A DNA stretch of 64,000 nt from Fimicolochytrium jonesii (lineage: Eukaryota): the NCBI RefSeq assembly GCF_025526975.1, contig NW_026515700.1:124001-188000 (forward strand), read 5' to 3'. A program made the position numbers and the translations under genes. The first letter of the stretch is position 1, and every line of letters begins with the position of its first letter. A model generated the notes under the pieces. It was not told the origin of the DNA and ran no database searches. It worked only from the letters and a program-made list of their open reading frames with translations. This document shows positions 1 to 64,000 of the stretch, piece after piece.

Positions 1-327
1 GATTATGAACGGCTCGAGGTTTCCCGAGCTGCCTTCCAGAAAGTACTCGACTGTGCATAACCGCGGTCCCGAAGGAGTCGATATCACTGTCCCTTTTGAA
101 TTGTCTCCCACCGAGATACCCTTTTCCTCCAATTCTGCCCATCGAAAAAATGGTGCATAGAGATCTCAAGTGAGTTCAAAAGGTTCTCGAGGCTCCCTGA
201 GTTCCAGTCCTCCCACCATACCTTTAACGATACTCCGAATAGTCTTCTTCAACGCCTTGTACTGAAAGGCCGGCCACTCCGGCGGGAGGTCTCGGTAGGC
301 CTCGCTGTATTGTTTAGCAAACTTCAT
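1..327 (-). CDS. SPX-domain protein, N-terminal part (probably fungal SPX-RING type); runs off the window edge
   Basis: Manual translation from ATG at 327: MKFAKQYSEAYRDLPPEWPAFQYKALKKTIRSIVK, then a GT-AG intron, then ELEEKGIS...VEYFLEG. MKF..PEW..YK.LKK is the SPX signature. Not in the ORF track. Confidence 0.8.
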
Positions 328-414
328 AACCGGGCGTACACTGGGGGCTACCCCGCAAGCCGTCCGGGAGTGTATGTGGAGTGTTCAAACGTGAGGGTTT
401 TGGGTATGAGGTGC

Positions 415-993
415 CTATTGCTGCCGGGCGTGGGAATATCCACCGTTTCCTGCGTCGAAACTTGGAGGGGAGAACTGACGGAATGCCGCAGTTTCTTTTG
501 CCTTCTGTCGTATGGCGATTGCTGTCCGAGTTGCGGTTGTGCTCTGCGGCTCCGAGTTGCTTATATATGGATGCGAGACCTGGTTCCGTAGGTCGACTGT
601 GTTGCCTGTTGGGAGCTGTGAATTTGAAAGACCGCCTGTGGTTGTGCTGAAGTGACTTTTCATCCCTGTGGAGCCTGCGGTTTGGCGTCGGTGATTATTT
701 ACGCTGCGCTTGCTCACGCGACTCCCACGCACTCCGAACTGCCTCCGAACCCCCGCAAACTCGCTGTAACAACGGGCTCCAAGACTGTTTGCTTTCCACA
801 CATGGGAAGTTTCCAAGGCGACCAACTTGTACTGCAGTGCATCCATCGAATCAATGAAATGTGGAGCTGTCGAAGCGACGGGGCGCACCGCCGCGGCCAA
901 ATGTCTCGGACAGAGGGGTCCAATCTCGGCTTCTTTCCCGCATTGGGTTCCCTGACGCTTTCCGGTTTTGAACACGTACGCGCAGTTAGTCAT
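415..993 (-). pseudogene. NCLDV-like ORF with N-terminal C-x-C-x-C-H Zn-finger motif, probably degenerate downstream
   Basis: MTNCAYVFKTGKRQGTQCGKEAEIGPLCPRH resembles the C..F..G...G..C......C..H finger common in giant-virus proteins. Intronless and 76 bp downstream of the viral-type TBP ORF. The C-terminal half does not look protein-like. Confidence 0.45.
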
Positions 994-1068
994 AAGTTCT
1001 CAGATATCGTTCAGTGTATATTGAAAACACACAGGAAGGCTTTTTTTTTCGACAGCTGTCCATCCATC

Positions 1069-2039
1069 TCATCTGTAGGAAGATACCACCGCCTGTGTGG
1101 CCGCCTCGATCTCGGATCGATGTGCGGTGAAGAACTCCTGTAAGAACCGATATATCAAGTTCCCTTGTTCCATATTGGCCAGACCTGCGACATTCATTTT
1201 GCCACTGTTAAAGCACGATACGGATATGTCCTTGCAAGTGCATGCTTGTTTGTTCTGCACCGAGCATCTGCCCTGTTTCTCCGGATCGTCCCGGGTCGCC
1301 TCTTTGTAGTGATAGCGCAGGTTTACACCTGCGTTATCGTATGGCTCAAGGCGACTGTAAAAGCCGTTGTCGAGGAAGCAGCGATGCAATTTATCGCGAT
1401 TGATGCGGAACGGTGCTTGGAAGAACGTGTTGATCATGTGGACCTGAAAGGATGTCTCGGGAAGAGGCGCGGCGGGCCCCCACGTTGACGGCAGCGCACT
1501 AAAAGGATGTATTAGTACCCCTTATTCGACGAGGTACTTCCGTTGTCGTTCTCCATCAGCTATGAGCTTGCGTGTAGCCAGGACTGTTTTCGCCTTGACG
1601 AACGACTCTTTCCCAATGATAGTGTGGCCAAAGTATACATAGCCGAACTTCACGTCAAAATTTCGCCTGTTCGCGTCTCGATCAAAGCGCAATCGCAACA
1701 CCGCTCAAGGTATAAACCGACTTTTCGCCATCTTGCCATTTTTCGCTGACGAACAGGGGCGTTTTCTGCGCCCGACTAGAGTCTCCTGCGTCGCGTAGCT
1801 GATCGGCCAGGCCCGAGATCTGTCCCAAAGGCGTGAGGACGACGTATTCGCTGCCAATGTGAGCCACGTCTGGTGATGATCCGGCAGCCCAGCCGACGAT
1901 AGTTGGTGATGTACGTATGAGTTTGAGTTCGCGGGTGTTGTGCGTTTGGAGGCTGAAAAGACGAGGATGGTTGCTGAGATCGCACGCCGGCCGCCGCTAA
2001 TGCTAGTGCAAGCATATTTAAATCCAGCCGTACCTCCAC
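1069..2039 (-). pseudogene. Giant-virus (NCLDV) type TATA-binding-protein-like gene; C-terminal repeat intact (1069-1437), upstream part disrupted
   Basis: MINTFF..FRINRDKLH...GFYSRLEP...GVNLRYHY...GRC...CTCKDISVSCFNSGKMNVAG...EQ...YRFL matches the viral TBP pattern with its Cys-rich insertion, not the conserved fungal TBP. A possible N-terminal remnant LDLNMLALAL lies near 2030, with stops and frameshifts between. Confidence 0.7.
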
Positions 2040-17289: not shown

Positions 17290-17449
17290 CTGGATCCTGG
17301 TACAGTAGAATCAAGATTGAGGTTGGGCGCAAAACGCCCTTCAGCAAGCATTCAATCTCCTTGGCACTCCATGGCAGCCGCTCAGACCTGACTTTGGGAA
17401 GCGTCGGATGTCTATTTGGGTTACGGTTAGGGTTAGGGTTAGGAGTCAT
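17290..17449 (-). pseudogene. Possible Myb/TRF-like (telobox) domain fragment
   Basis: RSERLPWSAKEIECLLKGV resembles Myb helix 1 (R.PW...E...L..GV). The rest of the domain is not clearly present. Confidence 0.3.
17425..17443 (+). repeat. Short interstitial telomere-type repeat (GGTTAG)x3
   Basis: GGTTAGGGTTAGGGTTAGG, preceded by the degenerate unit GGGTTAC. Confidence 0.8.
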
Positions 17450-17616
17450 GGGGAAAGAATTCAATTTACAGTACAAGGTTTTTACATATGTGGGGGAAGG
17501 GCGGGCAACGATCTTTGGGTGCTCAACTCTCAACTTGGGTTCGGACCGGAAAAGGTGTCGTTCAAGATCGAGACTCGAAGAAGGCGTTCGACGAGAGACG
17601 CCGAGTATTTCTATCA

Positions 17617-18171
17617 ATGGCTGACGACCAGCCCAACAAATACGGTTCACGGAATCACACGAAGAGCAAATCCTCCAGGGCGCTGCGGCGAGACGATTCC
17701 ATGGGGTGTCTTCAGAACGGAAGCTGCAGCGAGAGGCTGGACAATATGGAGTTTGGCCATCTGGAGCGATGCGAACACCCCACATATGCCTTGCCACACG
17801 TGCGAGGCGGAGCGGGATCTCCTGAGTTGGCAGATGGTAGGAATAAGCATTCATCAGCCCTGACGGAGGAGAACAGACTACACCTGTCAGAGAAGCTCCG
17901 CGCGCACGGTGACCAACACGCCGTCATCCTGCACGATAATCAAGACGTGCCCGATCTGGATTGGATTCCGAAACCGGTTTTCGGGCTAGCGTACAGTAAT
18001 CCCTTCGTCTTCTTTATTGATGGGACGGCACGATTGTACGCATATGATTTGATGGGGAGAGATATGTTTTTATTGGGAGAGACCCCTGAAATCGGGCTGC
18101 AACGGTGGATGGATCCATATGCAGACGACTGGCCTGCGTTAGACCCGCAGAATGGCAAGTGGATGGGGTAG
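17617..18171 (+). CDS. Hypothetical protein with SUKH/US22-like C-terminal motif
   Basis: PVFG...FVFFIDGTARLYAYD...MFLLGETPEIGLQRW resembles the SUKH-3/US22 core (P.G..h.hD..GrvY.hd...hhlg....e.l). The start codon is uncertain. Confidence 0.4.
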   Translation: MADDQPNKYGSRNHTKSKSSRALRRDDSMGCLQNGSCSERLDNMEFGHLERCEHPTYALPHVRGGAGSPELADGRNKHSSALTEENRLHLSEKLRAHGDQHAVILHDNQDVPDLDWIPKPVFGLAYSNPFVFFIDGTARLYAYDLMGRDMFLLGETPEIGLQRWMDPYADDWPALDPQNGKWMG

Positions 18172-18512: not shown

Positions 18513-19333
18513 CAGTCAGTGGACATAAAGCTGTGTGCATGCCAGATTAAGTCAGTGTCTGACGCGCGTTGCGCGACATCAACTCATCATCCTTAATCTT
18601 GGGGCATTGCAAAACCTGACCTAAATGAATGGATCTAGATCTGAATTTCGCTAATACCTAGTTGTCCCCCCATTGGCTGCGATTACGGCTGCCATTCTTG
18701 ATGGCCTTGACCGTGTCAATGCATCAAGATGCGGCTGCATTGTGGGCCATATAGTTTGCACAACGTTGTCCAACATTCCAGGGGTAGGGTTCGCTTTCGA
18801 TACCTTCCGTTTGAGCATTGCCCACAGATTCTCAATCGGATTGAGATCTGGACTCTGCGCTGGCCAGGGAAGAAGCTCAATGCCATGTTCATCAAAGAAC
18901 TGTCGAGTTTCAGCCGATGTATGAATAGGCGGAACGACAATACTGCGAAAGGCAGCCAAATCATCGTCAGAAGGCTGGTACTTAGCTGGTCTTCCTGTTG
19001 GCTTCTTCGATTGATAGGCGGTTGGTGCAGTGGCACTCTCGTTTGCAAACCTCTTAATAGTGTTCCTCACAGTATTCCTGTGAACGTGCTCCTGCCTTGC
19101 AATTTCAGATGTCATCTTGCCTGCTATATGGAGGGCAACTATGGCTGCCCTTTTTTGTGGTGTGAGAGGTTTCCCCATAGCTGAGGTGGTGAAGATGTTG
19201 GCGTGCATTTCGCCATCACGGCTTCGTCGCTGGCTTCAATACTCAAGCTTGCGGCTCCAAAACGCGCGGTGCGCTTTGTGAAACGGTCATTGAAATCCAT
19301 ATGGGGTGCACACAGCTTTTTGTCCACTGACTG
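18513..19333 (-). mobile_element. Tc1/mariner DNA transposon, internally deleted (non-autonomous), 821 bp
   Basis: 27-bp TIRs CAGTCAGTGGACA(T/A)AAAGCTGTGTGCA (18513-18539 and 19307-19333) with TA target duplications (18511-12 and 19334-35). Confidence 0.93.
18651..19208 (-). pseudogene. Tc1 transposase remnant: HTH fused in frame to the C-terminal catalytic segment
   Basis: N-terminal HTH (..SEIARQEHVHRNTVRNTIKRF..GRP) is joined directly to WPAQSPDLNPIENLW and AVIAANGGTTRY. The first two Asp motifs of the DDE triad are absent. Confidence 0.88.
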
Positions 19334-19642: not shown

Positions 19643-21085
19643 ATGTCAAAAAAAGCACCGGCAAAGACAAGTCGTCAAGCCGCACCTGCGGAGCCTACGG
19701 ACCCTGCGAAGGCCTTTGCGATCCCCAAGTTTAAACGCCTTGTTTCCGAGATTCTCCGTCACTTTGGTGACGGGTCCATCCAGTCGAGCGCCGTTGGGGC
19801 GCTACAGGAAATAGCCGGAGAATATGTCACGTATCTTCACAAGCACTATAAAGGCATATCCCGTGGAAGCGAGAAAGTTGGATCTGAGAACGGGGCGATG
19901 GGAATAATGGAGAAGGTTATGGTCAATCTGGATCTGAAGGATTTGAAGGCGGCTGCCAAGGTTTACGAGGCAGCGGGTTCCGGCTCCGCTGAGGCAGGGG
20001 ATTCTCTCTCGGAGGGCTGGAAACGTTCCATTCGCCTTCTGGCCCGCCGCGGCGGCGCCGAGATTCCCTCTGACGGTGTTTGCAAAATGACCTTCGACCT
20101 TTTGGTGTGCTTCCTGGAAAACATAATTCGTGATGCTTTGACGTATGCACAATTTGGGAAGAGAAGGACCGTCAACTCACTTGACATTGTGTATGCTCTC
20201 AAGCGGTTGAGCCGGTCGGCAGAAGAGTCGGCAGAAGAGTCCGCAGAAGAGTCGGGGGAAGACTCGCATGACGCCTCTAGGTGTCCCACTCCACAAGAAT
20301 CATCCGACGGTAGTAGCTCGAAGTCGAAGCCGAAGCCGATTCAACAACGCTCAGCAAAACGGAAAGCGCGTGAAGATGATGTACTTGTTGTCGAGGAGGC
20401 AGCCAACACTTTACAGGAATCATCCGAAGGTAGTAGTAGCTCGAAGCCAAAGCTACCCCAGCAACGCTCAGCAAAACGTAAAGCGAGTGTAAATGATGTA
20501 ATTGTTGTCGAGGAGGCCACCAAGCCTCCACGGCGGCACAACGACTCTGACAGTGCACTGGACAGCAGTACGGATCCCGATTCAGAATCAAACTCAGAAT
20601 TCTGTTATGCTCGGTTCAAGAAAGAGAGGGCAGAGAGAGCGCGGAGAAACGCTCGCAAGTTGGAGGATGCCGAGTTCAAGGTCATTCGTGACGTAAATTT
20701 GGGGTCGCTATCAAGCGACATGGCCAAGGCGGCCGTCTACGAAATCGCTTTCAACAGCAAAAGGAGCATCATGTATGTTGGAATGACCACCAATATGGCT
20801 GACCGCCTTCAACAACATCTCGGCTTCAAGAAGGTCGATAAGAAATGCTCGCATATCGCTCCAATGGTCCAATATGCAATCGAGAAGAATGTGGTTGTTC
20901 TCTATCGTTGCGTGTATGTCGGATCCGGGCAAGCTGCGATCGATGCCGAGCAGCACATGTTGGACAAGTACTGGTACGAGTGGAATAAACGAGATAATAC
21001 GCCCAAGGACAAGGCGGGCAAAAAGGCAAAAAAGGAGGCTTTAGAAAAATCGAAGGGACATCGGACACGAAAGACTGCAGCCTAG
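19643..21085 (+). CDS. Histone H3-like + histone H4-like doublet fused to an ET/HRT-type GIY-YIG nuclease (about 480 aa, intronless)
   Basis: H3 fold IPKFKRLVSEIL..IQSSAVGALQEIAGEYV...LKDLKAAAKV (~19710-19970). H4 fold SIRLLARRGG...FLENIIRDALTYAQFGKRRTVNSLDIVYALKR (~20010-20210). S/E/K-rich repetitive linker. Nuclease AVYEI..MYVGMT.NMADRLQQH..SHI..VLYR..AEQHMLDKYWYEWNKRDN (~20730-21000). Confidence 0.85.
   Translation: MSKKAPAKTSRQAAPAEPTDPAKAFAIPKFKRLVSEILRHFGDGSIQSSAVGALQEIAGEYVTYLHKHYKGISRGSEKVGSENGAMGIMEKVMVNLDLKDLKAAAKVYEAAGSGSAEAGDSLSEGWKRSIRLLARRGGAEIPSDGVCKMTFDLLVCFLENIIRDALTYAQFGKRRTVNSLDIVYALKRLSRSAEESAEESAEESGEDSHDASRCPTPQESSDGSSSKSKPKPIQQRSAKRKAREDDVLVVEEAANTLQESSEGSSSSKPKLPQQRSAKRKASVNDVIVVEEATKPPRRHNDSDSALDSSTDPDSESNSEFCYARFKKERAERARRNARKLEDAEFKVIRDVNLGSLSSDMAKAAVYEIAFNSKRSIMYVGMTTNMADRLQQHLGFKKVDKKCSHIAPMVQYAIEKNVVVLYRCVYVGSGQAAIDAEQHMLDKYWYEWNKRDNTPKDKAGKKAKKEALEKSKGHRTRKTAA
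20215..20518 (+). repeat. Intragenic repeats in the histone-nuclease linker: (SAEE)x3 and two ~105-bp copies (QESS.GSSS...QQRSAKRKA..DV.VVEEA)
   Basis: Direct copies at about 20294-20400 and 20414-20518; the reading frame is preserved. Confidence 0.85.
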
Positions 21086-24184: not shown

Positions 24185-27100
24185 TCAAACACCCAACCCA
24201 GTCATCATCCTACTCAGCGCCTCCTCATCAAAACTCCCATATCCCAACGCCGCCTCCCCATCCACACTCAGTTCACTCATCAACGACCCGCGTCTCCCAC
24301 CCCACGTCCGTATCAGCCCCGCCTTCAAAAACCCCCACACCCGTGCCAGCGCATCCCGCATCTCGCCGGTCCCGACGACGGATAGGGGTGGGTAGAGAAG
24401 TTCCCGTGTGCCGATGAGGATGCACCGGTCGCGCGCGCGTGAGAGGGCGACGTTGAGACGGCGGAGGTGGTAGGTGAATGTTAGAGTTGATTCGTGGCTG
24501 GAGGAAGGAAAGTGGGTGTGGGTTGGTTAGCAAATCCAGGTAGGGGCGGGGGGGAAGGCATTGGATAGGGAGAGAAGACTTACTAGGACCGACACCCCGC
24601 GAACCCATAGCACACGATAACCACATCCGCTTCCGTTCCCTGCACCCTCTCGACAGTATCCACGACTTCGACTTCCAACCCAGCGTCCCTCAACACTCTC
24701 GTGACCAGACTCCGCTGCACCCGATGCGGCGTGATCACTTTGATGTTCGTCCCATCCACGTCCGACAGCTGCAACGAGCGCACGAGTTGCGCTACGATGT
24801 TGGCCTCATACTGCAATTGATCCTCCAGTCGGGCATGCGGTTCAGGGAGCAGGATCGTCGTCCGCGGGCACGACGGGAGCGCGGCGGTAGGAGACTGGAC
24901 AATCGGCGACGACACCAACGCCATATCCCCACCCCCCAGCACCTCCGCCGCAAAGTCCGCGCCCTCCTCCCCAGCACGCATCGGCAAAAACACCCCACCG
25001 CGTTTATACAACTCATTACTAAACCTACAAAGGTCCCTCACCATCCGGAAATTCTCCTGCAACATCGTCATCCGCCTGTCCCGTTTCTCCTCACTGTCCG
25101 CATCGACCTCGACCAGCCATTCCAGGACTGAGCCGAACAAGCGGGTCTCGTCGGGGTACCCGCCTTTGAGAACGGGCGGGAGCTGGAGGTGGTCCCCCGC
25201 GACGATCAAACGTTTGCCGGTCCCGTTCTGCATCACGGTATCGATAGCGATCGCGGCTTCCGAGACGGTCATCTGGCTCCCTTCGTCGATGATCAGGCAC
25301 TGGAACGCGTCGCCGATGTGTTTGAGCCGCTCGCGCCATTTGTAGATGCCCCACACCGTACCGCCCACGACCGCGTATGTGGGCAAGTCGGCGGGTTTGG
25401 GCATCTTGGTGGCGTCTTTGGGGAGCACGGAGACTTGGACCAGGTCGCGCCAGGGTGATTCCAGCCCTTCCACCTGTCTGACGTTCGATAACAGAAACTC
25501 AAATTTGCGCAATAACGTGTCCACCCCGCTATTCGTCGCGCTCGTCACAAGCACGCGGAACGGGTCCCGTGCATTCGAGCGGCGGCCAGTGATTTCCATC
25601 AACCGTAACGCCGCGAGCGCCAACGTATGCGTCTTGCCGTGTCCTGGCGGGCCCCATATAACCGCGATCGGCCGCTCTAATATCTCCTTGAACGCCTTGC
25701 GTTGGCTTGTGGCGAGGAGTAACGGCCGATCGCCGCCTTTTAGGGTGTAGTACTCCCTGTACGTTGTTTGCAACCTCGCTTCGAGTTTTGCGTCCTCGGC
25801 GACGTTCGGCGGGGGATCCATCTCGGCATCCTCATCCAGCAACCGTGTGAAAAACGGCATTGTCGCGTGACCCAGGGACGCCTGGTCGATAGCCAACAAG
25901 CTCTTGATCACTTTCGCCGTGTTGAAATTAACCATCCGCTTCCGCAATATATACCCTTCACCCTCCTGCAAGAAATCCCTCCCCGCCCGGACAGCAATCT
26001 TCACCCTGCTACTTGAATCCATCTCAACCACCTCCGCAACCCCCCACGTCTCCCCACCCCTAATCAGCGGCCCATACGCTCCCGCAAACGCCAAATCATC
26101 AAACCCCACCGCAGCAACATCCACCTCGGTGCCGTGATTCTTCGTGATGATGTACCCATATTTCCGCCACTCGGTCGTTGTGGATACGTCCACGTACTCG
26201 CTTCCACTCGTACACGTGAAATTTGAATCGCCGTGGTAAACGAGGCGGGTGGTGTGAGTGTTGGATAGCCGGTCGTGGATGAGGGATTGGAGCTCCACGG
26301 TGACTTCGTATTGGGCCATGAAGAGGAGTTTGCGGAGGGTGGGGTGGTGGCAGACGTCGATGTAGGTTACGGAGAAATCCCGGGCGGTGTTGGGGAGGAT
26401 GTCGTGTATGCTGCGGATGGAAGAGAGGGTGGAGGTGGAGATGAGATGGCGTAAAGCGGTGGCGATGGCAAGCATTTTGGATCCGTGCCGCTTCAGGTGG
26501 GTGTGCAAGATGGGGATTGTGGGGGTGGCTTTGTAGGTGGAGTAGATGGTATCCCCGATATCCGTATCCTCTCCCGTGGCGTCGTCACCCAGCAGATATT
26601 TATATGCCCCATCAATCCCGTAGAACCCGGGTATGGGAAGCGCGACCAACGCCCTAACACACTCATGCAGAACCGCGACTTTCGGTAACATTCTCTGCAG
26701 CCCCGACTCCCTCCCCGCCGGATTCCCTCCTCGTTCCAAAAGTGCCGACAACCTCGCCAACATCACTTCCTTCGCCCCCGTGACATCGATCCCACTCCCA
26801 CCAAAAATACGCAGGTACCGTCTTATCTCATCCACACGGTCTGTTTTGCGGACTTTGAGCAGTAGACCACTCGCCAGCAGCTCCGGCTGCACGCTGGTGA
26901 GCAGGACCGAGGACTGGGTTAACAGCGCCCCGATGCAGAGTTTGGCCGCCTCGGTGCATTCGGGGGAACGTATGGCTTCGTCGACGAGGATTTGGGCGAG
27001 GGTGTCCGAGTCGGCGCGGGTGAAGACGTAGAATTGGACCCGCACCGGTTCAGGTGCCTGCGATTCCTTTCGGTCCAATAACATTTTGATCAGCGTTGCA

Positions 27101-28905
27101 AGGCTTTCGATGAACGTGGTTTGAAACACTGCGAGTGGGTTTGGGTTGGCGATGGCGGAGGTCTCGTGGATTGTTTTGGCGTCCGATGTGCTGTCCGACG
27201 CCAGGATGGAGAAGGCGTATAGTCGGTCTGTTTCTGGGTCGACGCCTAGAGTCAGGTATACGCTGATGTCCTCCTCCCGTGGGAATATTAGGCAGCTTCG
27301 CAAGAGTGGAGCGACTTTGTCCTGCAGCGCGGCTGTCAGGACTGAGCTTTTCGGTGCGGTGTCATGACCCGCACCGAATGTGGGGCCCGGTTGGTTTGCC
27401 CAGTCCGTAGATTTTTCAACGCGAGCGAGTTCGTCAGTGGCAGGCCCGAGAATTTCGTCCGAAACAGCTCTAGAAGCAGCGTCAACGACCCGTCCAGCGG
27501 GTTGAAACGACACGTTCGAGATGGCCAGCATCCGCTCCAACCGCTTATACGCAGGAAAATCATCACGCAGGGCTGATACCCGGACAATAGACTCCAAATC
27601 CTCCAGCTCGCTCCTCTTCCCGCTCCCATAAGTCTGTATCACCTCCTTCAAAAAGACTGCATCGGCCCCGGAGAGATGAGGTATCTTCCCCAACCTCTTC
27701 TCGCGCACGGTTTCCGCTCGACAACGTGGTAAGAACTCGCAGCCCTGACAGAGGGGGTTGAGATGCCATGGGACGTTGGTGAGATCGGTCGAAAGGAGTC
27801 GGGATAGCTCTTCGAATAAGAACGTTTCCAGAAGGGGCTGGAGCATCAGTAATGGGAATGATCCTTTTGGCGAAGGAACATCGCAGATATCCAGAGCTGT
27901 TCCTTTCGCGGGTATCCAGATCTCGCCTATCTCGTCTGGAACGATCTCCACGCGTGACGAATCGGACTTTTCACGCCAATCTTTGAAGAGCTCCGTCAGA
28001 GCCAGCCAGTAAAACCCCACTTGCACCTGATGCGAAACTTTGACCTTCCGCGACGCTTTGGCATCAATCACCCTGAATTTGATCTCAACCAGCGCGCCCG
28101 CGTCATCACGGTTCAGCCAGATTTCTAGGAAGTCTGGTTTGAATGTTCCGAAACGGACTGATTTTGGAGGCGAGTTCCGGCTTTTTAGTTGGTCATCGAA
28201 ATCCGGTGACTGGAATGTTAGGTCGACAATGTAGAAATGCGGGCGATGGTCACGTTTGATCAGGTTGACGAGTTCTTCGATACTGATTGGCGGGCTTCCG
28301 GGACCAGCGAGGATGAGATGTTCTTTTTTCAGTCGCTCTCGTAGTCGCCTTTCCCACTGAACAAATCAACGATTCAGCAAACATCATCAATCAACCCATC
28401 AATCCATCAACCCATCAGCCATCGACCATCTATCAACAAACAATATCCTGCTCGTTCCGCTCGCGACGAGGATGTTTTGGTTGCGGTGGGCGGAGCGTAG
28501 CTCGCTTCGCTCGCTAATAGATCTGACGCTCGCAGACGCTCGCTAAGAATCGTGGTTAGGGGAGGCATTGCGCCTTTGGCTCCGCTCGCATACCTCAAGC
28601 ATCCCTGTGCCTTTGGCCCAGTTGGCCTCGCTTTCGCCTCGCAACCTCCTCGCGTCGCTCGACCCCGCTGTCGCGTCAATTGGCGTACACACCTGGTTGC
28701 CCTTCCCAAATCTGGCCTCAGTCAGCGCCTGCGGTGGTGGTGGAGCCTTCTTATGTAAAGGGTTCCTTGAATCTCCCTTTGTCCCTCCACGTTTCTCGTC
28801 GGCAAGCCATAGGAACTTCTTGCACAAGTTTGTATGATATGAGTTGAGGTCTGTCGGAGTCAGGTAGCCTCGCAGCGAGTTGGCGGCCATTGCTGCGGCG
28901 GCCAT
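24185..28905 (-). CDS. RecB/Cas4-like PD-(D/E)XK nuclease fused to a Dna2/Upf1-like SF1 helicase; intron 1 = 28357-28692
   Basis: KPDFLEI..VIDAKAS..HQVQVGFY; CQGCEFLPRC; helicase motifs WGPPGHGKT, IIDEGSQ, GDHLQLPP, ENFRM, ITPHRVQ, DTVERVQGTEAD and RRLNVALSRAR. Confidence 0.88.
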
Positions 28906-57278: not shown

Positions 57279-58116
57279 TGTTATGGACGACGCGCCCATA
57301 CCATAAGCTTACCTACTGACAGCCGCCAATGTCAACCGCCAAATGTCAAACGCCAATGTCAATGTCAATGTCAGTGTCAATGTCAGTGTCAATGTCAATG
57401 TCAATGTCAGTGTCAATGTCAATGTCAATGCCACTCCCCCTCTCTCCTCTCATTTCGCCAATCCTCTTGCAATATCGCCACTCCTCCTCTCTCCTCTCAT
57501 TTCGCCAATCCCCCCTCGGCTTCTCCACACCCCCCACTACTTCCCCATAGCCAGCAGCTGTAGCAATGCTCTCTACGCTCGCCACGCACGCTCTAGGAGC
57601 ATAGCTGACGCCCCCCCAGTCCCCTCTTGTTGTTGTTGTTCTCTGATCTGCTGGGTTGCCTATCTATAAATAGCCGGCCTCTCTTCGTCCGTTCCCTTCC
57701 TCCCCAGCAGATCAACACCAGTTCTTCTCATCTCCTGTTCTAGTCCTTGTTTCTTGTTTCGCCAATAAAATCTCTTGTCGCCTATCACTCTCGCCCTGTC
57801 TTCTCTACTTCGCTTCCGCCTCCGTCGTCGAGGTCATAACAGTTTGATCTGCTCCAACACTGCGAAGTTCAGAACCCGTCCAGCCCTGCATCCGACAAAC
57901 CTTTTTCGCCATGTCCCAACCCGAATCCGTACCTTTCACCGCCAAGCAATGGAACGATATGTGCCAAGCCATCGCCGCCTTGCAAAGCCAAAACGCCAAC
58001 TTGCAGGCCAACCTAGCGCAAGCCCAAGCCGACGCACAAGCTGCCCAGAGCATCGCCGCCCAGGTTCAAGCCGATACGTACACCCGTCCCCAAGCCACCA
58101 ACCCTGCTCTGGAGCC
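57279..58116 (+). mobile_element. Truncated Ty3/gypsy element A: 5' LTR (57279-57841), PBS and gag start (57911), interrupted by element B
   Basis: TGTTATG...CATAACA termini; PBS GTTTGATCTGCTC; the gag stub MSQPESVPFTAKQWNDMCQAI is homologous to gag of element B. Confidence 0.85.
57354..57430 (+). repeat. Hexamer microsatellite (AATGTC/AGTGTC)n inside LTR A
   Basis: About 12 tandem units seen directly. Confidence 0.95.
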
Positions 58117-58697
58117 TGTTATGGACGACGCGTCCATACCATGCGCTTACCTCATGACAGCATCCCAACAGTCAGTCAATGTCAATTCCCTGTCAAAACC
58201 TGACATCTGCCAAACCTCGCAGCCGCACGCAGCCGCGCTACCCCACACCTGCCACTGCCTTCATTTCTCCACGCAGCCGCACGTAGCCACACCTCCCAAC
58301 ACTCGGCGCTTACAAACCCTTCTCCATACTTCCCCACGTACCCGCCCACAGCCTCAGCGTAGCCACCCCATCCCCAGTCTTCTGTTTCTATGCTTCCCCA
58401 CCCTTGGCGCTTCTCTTGGCTTCCCTCTCATTCCGTACCCTTCTGCTTCCCCACGCTTCCCCAGCCTTCCCAGAAAAACATAAATAGCCGCCTCCCCTGA
58501 GCTCCCCACTTCCTGATCCCCAAGCAGATCAACACCAGTTCTTCCTAGTCTTGTTCTAGTTCTTGTTTCGGTCTGAATACCATTACCTGTCAACAACCTG
58601 CACCACAAGTCGCCTCTATTTCCACCGGCTCCGCCCATTCATAACAGTTTGATCTGCTCAACAACCCCCAGCCGCTGTGCCTCCACGCCAAATCACC

Positions 58698-59623
58698 ATG
58701 TCCGACGCCCTTCCCCTCACGGCCGAAGCCTGGCAAACCATGTGCAATGCGATTGACGAACTTCGAGCGCAGAATACCACCCTACAAGCCGAAAAAGCGC
58801 AAACCCAGACCACTGCCCCTGCCACTCACGCCCCCGAACCCAAAATCAGTCTCCCAGACAAATTTGATGGCACCCGAAGCAAGTTCCGTGGGTTCCTCAA
58901 CCAGATCCGGCTCATGTTCGCCCTCCAACCCAGGCGCTACCCAAACGATCAGACCAAGATACGAACTATTGGCACCTACCTCACTGGCACCGCCCAGGCC
59001 TGGCTGGCGCCCCTTGTCGAACAAGACCATCATTCCCTTACGAACCTGGATGATTTCATCCAGCAAATGCAAGCAGTCTTTGGAGACAGCGACAGGATCC
59101 GCACGTCTGAAAACAAGCTCCAGAACCTTCGACAAACCCATGCAGCAACAGAGTATGTAGCTGAATTCCGACAGCTGCAATGCGATGTGTCGTGGAATGA
59201 CCAGGCATGATTGCCACCTTCCGTCGCGGCCTCAAAGAAGACGTCAAGGACTTAATGCTCACGATGCCCCCTACCGCCTCAATTGACACCGTGATGGAAC
59301 AGGCCATCCAATGTGACAACCGATTGTTTGAGCGCCGTCTAGAGCGAAGCAGGAACCAACAGCCATATGTGCCAGTTACCACTAGCCCCACCCTCATGAG
59401 CCCCGACAACCGCCCAGACGACCCTATGATCATTGACGCTGCTCGTCCGCGAGGACCCCTCACACCGCTAGAGCGCCAACACCGCATCACAAACAAACTT
59501 TGCCTCTACTGTGGTAAACCCGGCCACATAGCCAAACTCTGCCCGAACAAGATACGCACGGCAAATGTCGCGGTTAAGGAACCTGCACCCATCCAGGATT
59601 TTGCCCAAGTCCAGCTGCAGTAA
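58698..59623 (+). pseudogene. gag: gag with CCHC zinc knuckle, frameshifted near 59208
   Basis: PEPKISLPDKFDG..F; L.QT...EYVAEF; CLYCGKPGHIAKLC; split over two frames. Confidence 0.9.
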
Positions 59624-59781
59624 AGGCCGAGCAGCTGGGCAACACCTGTCCTGGGCCTTCTCACCACGCAAGTACTGCCAAGGGAGAAGCCACAAAACCT
59701 TGCTCCGATCCTGGCATCTCCAGCAACACCCTTCTCCTGACCACCAACAATGTCAATCTCCTATCTGAGATACCCTCACCC

Positions 59782-62700
59782 ATGCGGACTTTGGGCCCAT
59801 CCTCACCATTCGAGTACCCTGTTACCCTGCAGATATCGGCCCAGCGAGCTCCAGTTCAGCTTTCAGCACTACTCGACACCGGTGCGATGTCGTGCTTCAT
59901 CGACGAAAGTTATGCCCGCAAGCACCGCATCCCACTTGTCAAGAAGGAGGACCCCATTGCGCTTGAACTGGTTGACGGACGTCCCAGCCATGCGGGCTCC
60001 ATTACCCATCACACCCAACCTTTGGGCATGTGGGTCAACGACCATTTTGAGGAGGTGGTATTCCATGTGACATGTTCCCCGCATGCGCCAATCATCCTGG
60101 GCTTCCCTGGTTTGAGCTCCATGATGTGGAGCTACACTGGAAGACTCGCACTCTTTGCGTCCGCTGCCATTGCGGTTTTGGACAATACGCCTCCTGGGAT
60201 GCCCTGCCAACAGAACCTAGCCCGAAGCCCTCAAAAACCCCTGAACCTCTGATCCGTATCCATCAAGACGAGATTTCAGTCTCCCTAGCCCAGACACCCA
60301 ACACACTGGACCCAGCACCCACACCGACCCACGTATCGTTTATCAGTGCCCCAGCTTTCCGTGTGGCGGCAAGGCATGACCAGGCATTCATTGCCTACGC
60401 CAATCCGACCAAGTCAGATTCCCAAGCCCTGGCGACCTTTCCTCCAAAAGATCCGAAGGCCATCATTCCTGAAGAATACCAAGATTTTGCGGACGTCTTC
60501 GCCAAGAAGAACGCGGATACCCTCCCAGAGCACCGACCCTACGACTGTCCCATCGACTTAGAAGAGGGCAAACAGCCACCGTTCGGCCCGATCTATAGTC
60601 TCAGCGAGCCTGAAATGCAGGCACTCTGTGACTACCTTGAAGAGAACCTAGCTAAGGGGTTCATCAAGCACTCCAAGTCTCCCGCCGGTGCCCCAGTCCT
60701 CTTTGTCAAGAAAAAGGACGGTTCCCTCCGTCTGTGCGTCGACTATCGTGGACTCAACAATATCACCATCAAGAATCGCTATCCCTTGCCCTTGATTAAC
60801 AGCATCATGGATCGTCTTCGAGGGGCACGCCGGCTCACCAAGATTGACCTCCGGGGAGCCTACAACCTTCTTCGGATCCGGCCAGGGGATGAATGGAAGA
60901 CAGCGTTCCGATGTCGCTACGGCCTATTCGAGTATAATGTCATGCCGTTTGGGCTCACCAATGCCCCTGGAGTATTCCAACACCTCATGAACGACATATT
61001 CCGTGACATTCTCGACGTTTTTGTTGTGGTCTACCTTGACGACATTCTGATCTTCTCAAAAAACCCAGAAGACCACCCCAACCACGTCCGAGAGGTGCTC
61101 TCACGACTCCGCCAGCACGGGCTGTATGCGAAACCGGAAAAATGCGAATTCAACCGTGACTCTGTTGAGTTCCTGGGGTTTATCATCTCCAGCAAGGCAT
61201 TTCCATGGACCCAAAGAAGACGGCTGCCATTACCGAATGGGAACCCCCAACGAATGTCAAAGGCATCCAGCGCTTCCTTGGTTTCGCCAACTTCTACCGG
61301 CGATTCATCAAAGGGTACTCTGCGATCGTTGCACCCCTGACCACGCTCACTCGCAAAGACTTGCCCTTCAAATGGACCCACGCTGCACACCTAGCTTTTG
61401 AAACCCTCAAGAAAGCCTTCACCTCTGCACCTATCCTGACTCACCCCGACCCTGACAAGCCCTTCATTGTCGAATCCGATGCCTCCGACTTTGCCCTTGG
61501 CGCCGTCCTCCTTCAACCCGATGACACAGATCAACTCCACCCCGTGGCCTTTCACTCCCGCACATTTACTCCTGAGGAAATCAACTATGAGATCTACGAC
61601 AAGGAACTCCTGGCTATCCAAGACTCCTTTGCGACACCACCTCATTGGTGCCCGCCACAAGGTCATCGTTTACTGTGACCACAAGAACCTCCAGTACTTC
61701 ATGACTACCCGTACCCTCAACCGCCGCCAATCCCGCTGGTCAATCTTCTTTGCTGATTTCGACTTTGTCATCACATACCGCCCTGGTACCCAGCAACACC
61801 AAGCTGACGCCCTCTCTCGTCGCTCTGAATACGAGCTAAGGGAGGGGGAAGAAGCATTCCGCTCCCAGGAAACCACGATCCTCACCCCTGACCATCTCCG
61901 CCTGGCCGCCACTTATCTGACCCCACTGGACTCCTCGCTCCTTGACCAAATCAAAGCTGCCCTGGCATCCGATGTGTTTGCGCAAACCATCCGGCGACAG
62001 CTTAGGGCCCCCATTGCCCAGCAATCTCAAGAAGATCAAGAACGGATAAAGCGATTCTCCGAGGAAAATGGGGTTCTGCTGTACGACAACCTTGTCTACG
62101 TCCCCACCAACAAGCTCCGTGCTGAGATCTGCCGGGACATGCATGACACGCGTTTGGCAGGACACTACGGCATGTCAAAGACCCTGGAGCTCATCTCACG
62201 CAACTACTGGTGGCCTAGCCAATGGCGTTTTGTCAAGTCCTACATCAGGTCCTGCGACGTATGTGCTCAAGCCAAGACCGGCAGACACAAGCCCTACGGT
62301 CTCCTCCAACCCCTGCAGGTCCCTGACCGCCCCTGGGGGTCAATTTCCATGGACTTCATCACGGATCTACCCGCCAGTGATGGGGTTGATTCTGTGCTTG
62401 TTGTCATCTGCCGGTTCACCAAGATGGCGCACTTTGTACCGTGCAGGAAAACTGCCACCGCTGAGTCAACTGCAGATCTGATCTGGCACCATGTCATCCG
62501 GCTCCATGGACTCCCCGACGATATTGTATCTGACCGTGGCCCACAGTTCAACTCCCACTTCTGGAAACGTCTCTTCGCTCTCCTGGGAACCAAGGTCAAC
62601 CTCTCATCGGCGTTCCATCCCCAGAGCGATGGACAAACCGAGTGGACCAATCAGATTCTTGAGCAATACCTTCGCTGCTTTTGCAACTATCAACAAGATA

Positions 62701-63440
62701 ACTGGAAGGAACTCTTGTCTTCTGCTGAGTTCTCTTACAATAACACCATCCACTCCGCCACCCAGACAACCCCCTTCTACGCCAACTATGGGTTCCATCC
62801 TCGATTCAGTCTGGCTTCCGCCACCACAACCGAATCCCTTAATCCTGCAGCCGAAGCTCGTGCCAACCATCTCAAGGAAATCCATGAACAGCTTGCCACT
62901 GAGCTCAAGGAGGCCCAAGGACGCATGAAGCGCTTTGCCGATGCTAAGAGGGCACCTGGCCCAGACATGAAACCCGGGGACAGTGTCTGGCTCTTACAAC
63001 GGAATCTCAAGACTCTCCGACCTTCCCAGAAACTTGATCACCGTAAGATTGGCCCCTTCACAATCACGGAGAAGATCAACTCGGTCACATATCGCCTCAA
63101 GCTTCCCCCATCCTACAAAATTCACAACGTCTTCCATGTCTCCCTTCTTGAACCACGTTTCACCATTCCGGAGCGAACTGAGCCAGAACCCACCCCACCA
63201 GAAGAAGTCGAAGGACAGGAGGAATGGATTGTGGAAGACATTCTTGACTCCCGTATTCGACGCACGCACCTTCAGTACCTCATCAAGTGGCAGGGTTGGC
63301 CAAGCTCGGAGAACACATGGGAGCCAGTGGAACACCTTGCCCGATGTCAAGAGCTTGTTGCCCAGTTCCACCAAAAGTACCCCGACAAACCCCGACCAAA
63401 GCCTGCCAACATCAAAACAACATCCGGACGCCGTGGCTAA
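59782..63440 (+). pseudogene. pol: pol (protease, RT, RNase H, integrase, chromodomain) with frameshifts near 60105, 61197 and 61635
   Basis: [76 protein letters not shown]. Confidence 0.93.
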
Positions 63441-64000
63441 AGGAGGGGTTGATGTTATGGGCGACGCGTCCATACCATGCGCTTACCTCATGACAGCATC
63501 CCAACAGTCAGTCAATGTCAATTCCCTGTCAAAACCTGACATCTGCCAAACCTCGCAGCCGCACGCAGCCGCGCTACCCCACACCTGCCACTGCCTTCAT
63601 TTCTCCACGCAGCCGCACGTAGCCACACCTCCCAACACTCGGCGCTTACAAACCCTTCTCCATACTTCCCCACGTACCGCCCACAGCCTCAGCGTAGCCA
63701 CCCCATCCCCAGTCTTCTGTTTCTATGCTTCCCCACCCTTGGCGCTTCTCTTGGCTTCCCTCTCATTCCGTACCCTTCTGCTTCCCCACGCTTCCCCAGC
63801 CTTCCCAGAAAAACATAAATAGCCGCCTCCCCTGAGCTCCCCACTTCCTGATCCCCCAGCAGATCAACACCAGTTCTTCCTAGTCTTGTTCTAGTTCTTG
63901 TTTCGGTCTGAATACCATTACCTGTCAACAACCTGCACCACAAGTCGCGTCTATTTCCATCGGCTCCGCCCATTCATAACATCAGGGGTGCAACGATCGC

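Follow-up and report, generated by a model that had tools for sequence, protein, structure and literature searches.

A fungal open reading frame joins H3-like and H4-like histone folds to an ET-type GIY-YIG nuclease domain

A single intronless open reading frame (ORF) in the window, which is the whole stretch of 64,000 nucleotides analysed here, encodes an H3-like fold, an H4-like fold and a GIY-YIG nuclease domain on one chain of 480 residues. As judged from the sequence, this H3-H4-GIY-YIG fusion is a real architecture that was previously unreported, for which we infer a function below. Each of the parts is already known; a fusion of histones to a GIY-YIG nuclease was found in none of the collections and papers searched. 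The sequence shows the fusion itself and its catalytic residues; it also shows that the dyad end and the H4 tail are lost and that the H2B-facing end of H4 is conserved. Our tentative reading is that the gene is a lineage-restricted fungal fusion of an ET-type GIY-YIG domain, with intact catalytic residues, to decayed copies of H3 and H4, and that the H3-H4 pair would fold on itself and tether a predicted nickase to chromatin outside normal nucleosomes. We give these two statements, taken jointly, a little less than an even chance. The features of the ORF and of its upstream neighbours are as follows:

19643..21085, plus strand: intronless ORF of 480 aa (H3-like and H4-like folds, linker, ET-type GIY-YIG domain, basic tail)
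19649..19690, plus strand: possible H3-tail remnant, aa 3-16 aligned with H3 18-31; marginal
19727..19837, plus strand: H3-like segment (aa 29-65) from helix 1 through loop 1 to mid helix 2; H3 position 90 is G; R63 and R83 lost
19838..19969, plus strand: aa 66-109, where the H3 fold is remodelled; H113 replaced by G, 15-residue insertion, weak helix 3; pLDDT <50
20000..20218, plus strand: H4-like fold, aa 120-192; loop 1 including R45 lost; end of helix 2, loop 2 and helix 3 conserved; S83-L84 present
20219..20593, plus strand: linker, acidic and rich in Ser, containing a 12-nt tandem repeat and a ~120-nt duplication with two KRKA motifs
20732..20998, plus strand: ET-type (PF19239) GIY-YIG domain, aa 364-452
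20999..21082, plus strand: Lys-rich C-terminal tail, net charge +8 over aa 452-480
18513..19333, minus strand: relic of a Tc1/mariner element that has terminal inverted repeats of its own and ends 310 bp upstream of the ATG
17488-18171, plus strand: orphan ORF of 227 aa, annotated as a singleton in the protein collection

The other five frames of the ORF contain 10-25 stops each, and an open frame of 480 codons is expected by chance with a probability of ~7e-11 at this composition. The original prediction had placed the three parts in one ORF, and each of them was recovered here: the H4-like part with an E value of 2e-14, the H3-like part with a score that 0 of 5000 shuffles reached, and the GIY-YIG domain above both Pfam cut-offs. 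The Atlas contains an identical 480-aa protein, letter for letter, which represents a gene call and not expression. A collection of 15 billion proteins lacks this exact sequence but includes the neighbouring 227-aa ORF of the same assembly. The GC3 of the ORF is 0.56, compared with 0.66-0.71 in host genes, which indicates a weaker codon bias.

The nuclease domain scored 30.2 bits against PF19239 (cut-off 21.4) and 26.6 bits against PF01541 (cut-off 22.6). Its catalytic set is complete, as had been predicted, with every expected position kept: Y366, Y378-V-G380, R388, H404, E436 and N448. The GIY-YIG superfamily is described in PMC1564403 by two short GIY/YIG boxes, a central Arg, a C-terminal Glu and an optional Asn; all of these traits are found in the query, and the corresponding Atlas structure matches have TM values of 0.54-0.61. 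Relatives were gathered with a degenerate pattern for the C-terminal motif of the subfamily, which returned 3 viral, 119 metagenome and 32 genome stretches (153 loci in all, with many chance matches and many short loci). Among the true ET-type members there are plant-type proteins that carry ET repeats as well as stand-alone proteins of ~165-230 aa that lack them, and 10 of the 11 collected members scanned pass the PF19239 cut-off. In order to avoid circularity, both the query and the collecting motif were left out of a profile, against which the query then scored 20.7 bits, while the best of 2000 shuffles reached 12.1. With 17 of 20 relatives used, 10 of the 14 family-conserved positions outside the search motif are kept, compared with 7 of the 62 other columns (Fisher P 1e-5). 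By this pattern of conservation, the nuclease domain is under constraint. Its identity to the 20 aligned relatives is 16-30%, and in a tree of 18 nuclease rows (3 of 21 were left out, two fragments and one C-terminal-only match) the query lies on a long branch and in no supported group, so that we claim no donor of the nuclease. No frame with a histone fold was found in any of the 153 loci, many of them short (best E 4.3 among 3790 frames).

The proposed match to the plant ET/HRT family holds for the nuclease domain, by the profile score and the 10 of 14 conserved positions, but not for membership of the ET proteins, because the query has no ET repeats (0, against 1-6 in 5 of 5 plant-type loci). 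These repeats were counted with a Cys/His pattern. The query resembles plant ET1, ET2 and HRT in its GIY-YIG subfamily (PF19239), in the conserved positions and in the combination of a nuclease with a separate targeting module, whereas it differs from them in the absence of Cys/His ET repeats, in the C-terminal position of the nuclease, in the histone doublet found instead and in its fungal host. PMC6585611 describes the ET/HRT proteins as plant-only and reports that single-strand cutting by ET2 was demonstrated by UvrC complementation. By inference from ET2, the domain is a predicted DNA-nicking enzyme. The PF19239 domain is not confined to plant ET proteins, since stand-alone ORFs without ET repeats exist. 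Such ORFs of ~165-230 aa were seen at eight loci (L013, L023, L036, L045, L049, L068, L011 and L085), and several of these contigs carry two copies ~2 kb apart.

In the H3-like segment, residues 29-66 matched the PDB with a best E value of 0.022, and among the matches listed all 60 of 60 are H3. The match is clear for helices 1 and 2: the segment is identical to H3 in 19 of 37 columns, with a score that was equalled by none of 5000 shuffles. The best H3 matches also carry G90, which we take to be a fungal-type signature of H3, and presumably also a histone-chaperone signature. Helix 3 is marginal (258 of 5000 shuffles equal its score) and is located behind the 15-residue insertion, with K122 and D123 kept. 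An explanation of this insertion as an intron was rejected, the sole in-frame GT-AG pair being non-consensus. The H4-like segment (aa 120-192) matched histone H4 in the PDB with an E value of 2e-14 and is 48% identical to H4. Its best matches share S83-L84 with the query, which we likewise assume to be a fungal-type signature. The face of H4 toward H2B is identical at 19 of 31 positions (Y72, T71, R67, D68, Y88, K91 and R92 are among the residues kept) and its changes are conservative, but H75 is replaced by F. R45 is replaced by I, and the C-terminal tail is missing, with only 1 of 9 residues of H4 94-102 kept. The original prediction had the canonical tails as absent; for H3, residues 3-16 may be a tail remnant, although a marginal one (6 of 14 identical; score equalled by 275 of 5000 shuffles).

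Taken by their residues, the H3 and H4 parts were likely captured from fungal histone genes. The window is fungal: it contains a DUF3712 gene and an eIF5A gene whose product reaches 160-178 bits with the seven top-scoring PDB entries, presumably all fungal, and ≤147 with the rest.

The two histone folds are predicted to pack as an intramolecular handshake pseudodimer, as had been proposed. This is suggested by an AF2 model of the doublet with a bridge between loop 1 and loop 2 (residues 45-46 with 176-177) and by structural matches to double-histone-fold chains. The pLDDT of the model is 66-82 at the conserved end and <50 at the other end; overall the model is weak (pLDDT 50.8, pTM 0.47), with canonical histone rows as the input alignment. 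Comparison of this model by VIA-align gave double-histone-fold chains as the six best rows (Z 7.8-9.3, rmsd 3.7-4.6, 126-136 residues aligned), at Z values below ~13, where a match can be an arrangement common among helical proteins. Rows 1 and 6 are assigned to this class by their titles. The top fold matches include Sos1 and the SAGA core. Foldseek gave no match to the doublet model in PDB or BFVD at E 0.001, and the Atlas model of the query matches doublets across aa 21-192 with TM values of 0.62-0.66. An AF2 run of the whole protein from the single sequence gave a pLDDT of 39 and was unusable.

The divergence from canonical histones is lopsided. Identity is 37 of 67 at the H2B-facing end (H3 helix 1 to mid helix 2, together with H4 63-93) and 11 of 54 at the dyad end (P 1.6e-4), for a split that follows the structure but was chosen post hoc, with the alignment already seen, and with an uncertain register at the dyad end. 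Among the residues of the H3-H3' bundle, H113 and L109 are replaced by G, R116 by M and L126 by A, and the 15-residue insertion is located here, while D123 is kept; the register is uncertain in this part. The alpha-N region of H3 is gapped in the alignment, R63 is replaced by A and R83 by S. The alpha-N helix, the minor-groove arginines and the H4 C-terminal strand all have roles in the nucleosome. On this comparison the dyad end (H3-H3' bundle, H4 R45 and H4 C-terminal tail) is remodelled, and the H2B-facing end of H4 is conservatively changed.

This contrast bears on whether the doublet could be handled by histone chaperones, replace H3-H4 in the nucleosome and so embed a nickase in chromatin, as the original prediction had allowed. 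Because it is the dyad end that is remodelled, and the H2B-facing end of H4 shows conservative changes, we consider loading into a canonical nucleosome improbable. The largely kept H4 face for H2B and G90 would suit such incorporation, whereas the replaced bundle residues, the insertion, the absence of an alpha-N helix and of the minor-groove arginines, the changes of H4 R45 to I and H75 to F and the missing H4 C-terminal tail oppose it. Published evidence on the four-helix bundle points both ways. The bundle is built from H113, R116-D123 and hydrophobic residues, and Melbournevirus, which lacks H113, still forms it (PMC9396995), but in PMC2583301 the single change H113A leaves H3/H4 a dimer and blocks tetramers.

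The evidence for selection on the gene is mixed. The histone part has no stops or frameshifts and its frame stayed open after ~0.33 substitutions per site. In a simulation of neutral drift, 99 codons remained stop-free in 9.7% of runs, which extrapolates to ~1% for the 192 codons of the doublet. The substitutions in the 99 aligned histone codons are no more conservative than neutral (−0.65 vs −0.57; 2541 of 4000 simulations reach it). In one of the five segments tested, H4 63-93, substitutions are more conservative than under neutrality (P 0.004); the other four segments are neutral-like, and the H4 window is non-significant in an any-window test (P 0.10). All of these simulations used animal-type H3 and H4 as stand-in ancestors. 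The CpG observed/expected ratio of the ORF is 1.08, similar to that of four host genes (1.04-1.16), compared with 0.74 in the Tc1 relic and 0.77 in a Ty3 element; one host gene is also low (0.87).

These data have to be weighed against the view that the gene is a chimeric leftover, in which the histone part is a vestigial passenger without targeting and the frame is kept open for the downstream nuclease, or in which the whole gene is silent and decaying. The neutral-like histone substitutions overall, the loss of key DNA-binding arginines, the weak codon bias, the upstream transposon, and the orphan status of the gene, which is absent from the collection that contains its neighbour, agree with this view. 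So does the linker, where the two copies of the duplication show, among 27 codons, 7 with non-synonymous and 4 with synonymous differences. Against it, conservative change is concentrated in H4 63-93 and the decay tracks the two structural ends of the handshake, no stops, frameshifts or CpG decay accompany the divergence, and the Atlas contains the identical protein, if only as a gene call. On balance, we regard a leftover as somewhat unlikely. The repeat spacings of the linker are 12, 117, 120 and 123 nt, all multiples of 3. The predicted KRK motifs are present in it as KRKA at aa 239 and aa 278; they are putative nuclear localization signals by their pattern.

The flanking genes are ordinary host genes, between which two orphan genes and a transposon relic cluster. 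The relic is internally shortened, CpG-depleted and flanked by TA, with 38-nt terminal repeats and a 185-aa ORF that encodes an HTH and a partial DDE_3 domain. We considered the 480-aa ORF as cargo of this Tc1 element and rejected this, since it lies outside the Tc1 terminal repeats. The last 97 codons of the 227-aa ORF look coding, but neither the whole ORF nor parts of it matched anything in Pfam, NCBIfam, PHROGs, the PDB (best E 1.1) or phages. By eye, its end is faintly like SUKH/US22-type proteins. Three telomere-like TTAGGG units lie just upstream of it, near 17423-17440.

This neighbourhood invites the interpretation that the nuclease is a selfish toxin, which would damage chromatin in cells or spores without a linked antidote, the candidate antidote being the 227-aa ORF. 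The clustering of the two orphan genes with the relic between host genes, the singleton status of the 227-aa ORF, the intact nuclease and the faint likeness, by eye, of the end of this neighbour to SUKH-type immunity proteins would fit a toxin. The 227-aa ORF has no family match, however, and no element ends common to the surroundings of both genes were found, and to us a toxin appears hardly probable.

A giant virus, or other mobile DNA, would be another source: the fusion could have arisen in a virus infecting the fungus and been left in the genome. The gene is intronless, and a Nucleocytoviricota cluster is among the Atlas look-alikes, although its score of 0.86 is below those of four eukaryote or unlabelled rows. 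Doublets, including ones in H3-H4 order and fusions to non-histone sequence, are typical of large DNA viruses according to PMC9145170. Broken ORF fragments in the first part of the window (1-1700, minus strand) look giant-virus-like by eye, with a TBP-like protein, a small zinc finger and the start of an SPX domain; the partial SPX match (E 3e-4) is under the cut-off, a single 23-residue viral match is doubtful, and none of the fragments matched the PDB. Against a viral origin, identity is 11-18% to viral histone doublets and 42-52% to cellular H4, which does not support the suggested giant-virus link of the doublet, and the signatures are of fungal type. None of the 25 viral stretches with an ET-type motif was confirmed as belonging to the family, no ET-type nuclease was found in 802 frames of 8 viral loci with H3 or H4, and CpG decay is absent. 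Scans of contigs with the query, viral contigs included, gave no relative, and the doublet had none among viral contigs. Viral cargo is very improbable in our estimate. Separately, H3 genes of the viral loci L156-L161 carry an insertion of ~9-13 residues in the tail, after position 28.

Protein searches gave no homolog of the whole protein, and none of the nuclease region among shorter and similar-length proteins. Phages gave nothing beyond 2 records at E 0.7, and plasmids gave nothing. Among 1.84 billion representatives there were 2244 matches at E ≤0.001; the best 150 are all histone matches (46 of them also Pfam-scanned) and the GIY-YIG part is in 0 of these 150. This search alone covered proteins >840 aa, and any weak nuclease-only relatives below 54 bits would rank below the best 150. 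Among the papers that the literature searches listed, none has a title or opening of the abstract that describes a histone-GIY-YIG fusion, and together these results agree with the original prediction, which knew of no described fusion of this kind.

The H3-H4 order is the reverse of the H4-H3 of Marseilleviridae, as predicted, but it is not unprecedented, as Medusavirus stheno has H3-H4 (PMC9145170). With these viral doublets and nudivirus Orf1 the query shares two histone folds per chain, but it is far closer to cellular histones of fungal type, and its tetramer end is remodelled. The doublet of Orf1 is within a protein of 1111 aa, in the order H4-H3 according to PMC9145170 and H3-H4 according to PMC13520046. 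The passages on viral doublets in PMC9145170 mention no nuclease fusion. Further viral histone types are described in PMC13681535, in whose main text the words nuclease and GIY are absent. In Sos1, ABTB2 and Spt3 the double histone fold is, as in the query, a pseudodimer that serves as a module of a larger protein (PMC13088155; the word nuclease is absent from its main text), but the H3 and H4 ancestry of the query can still be recognised, and a nuclease is attached to it.

Animal gene models with H3 followed by H4 on one predicted chain (PMC13520046) have the same order as the query, and near-identical animal H3-H4 proteins top the match list of the 1.84 billion representatives. These models are 88-98% identical to canonical histones, whereas the query is ~50% diverged, consists of one exon, and has neither the internal start nor the tail of H4. 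According to PMC9145170, no fused doublet among eukaryotic histones is confirmed, and the database cases examined, those of the animal H3-H4 type included, are apparent mis-annotations. As one diverged exon within a fungal genome, the query is a candidate for a genuine doublet of cellular H3 and H4. Transposon fusions with chromatin readers, such as chromodomain integrases and SETMAR (10.1101/2021.11.30.470311; the word GIY is absent from its main text), also aim a DNA-cutting enzyme by a chromatin module, but in the query this module is a histone and not a reader, and the ORF has no linked transposase or reverse transcriptase.

In the mechanism that we tentatively prefer, chromatin tethering outside normal nucleosomes, the captured H3-H4 pair would fold on itself, a central tetramer would be impossible, and the conserved end that faces H2B and DNA may bind DNA, H2A-H2B or opened nucleosomes. 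The doublet would be a chromatin-docking module that replaces the zinc repeats by which plant ET proteins are aimed. The KRKA motifs could bring the protein into the nucleus, where the flexible linker would allow the nuclease to nick nearby DNA. By analogy with ET2, the most likely role would be tolerated by the host and would lie in nick-initiated repair or the turnover of chromatin. A bolder version, which we think unlikely, is an expressed and selected enzyme whose one-ended pseudodimer is a bait, capping H2A-H2B or opened nucleosomes or riding chaperones, and which nicks the exposed DNA. If true, this would be the first case of a nuclease that finds its target by mimicking histones, either a genome-defence factor or a selfish toxin at the level of chromatin. 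If the protein is expressed and active, it is an example of core histones recruited to direct DNA-cutting enzymes, ET-type nucleases, described as plant-specific, extend to fungi, and the half-decayed doublet is a natural means of testing which histone surfaces suffice for chromatin binding.

Two further loci of the window are recorded here. A large gene at 24586-28365 (minus strand) has a weak PD-(D/E)XK nuclease match before an SF1 (AAA_11/AAA_12) helicase. The Ty3-type retrotransposon, at 57848-63819 (plus strand), encodes gag, RT, RNase H, integrase and a chromodomain in several frames, with two gag-like starts.
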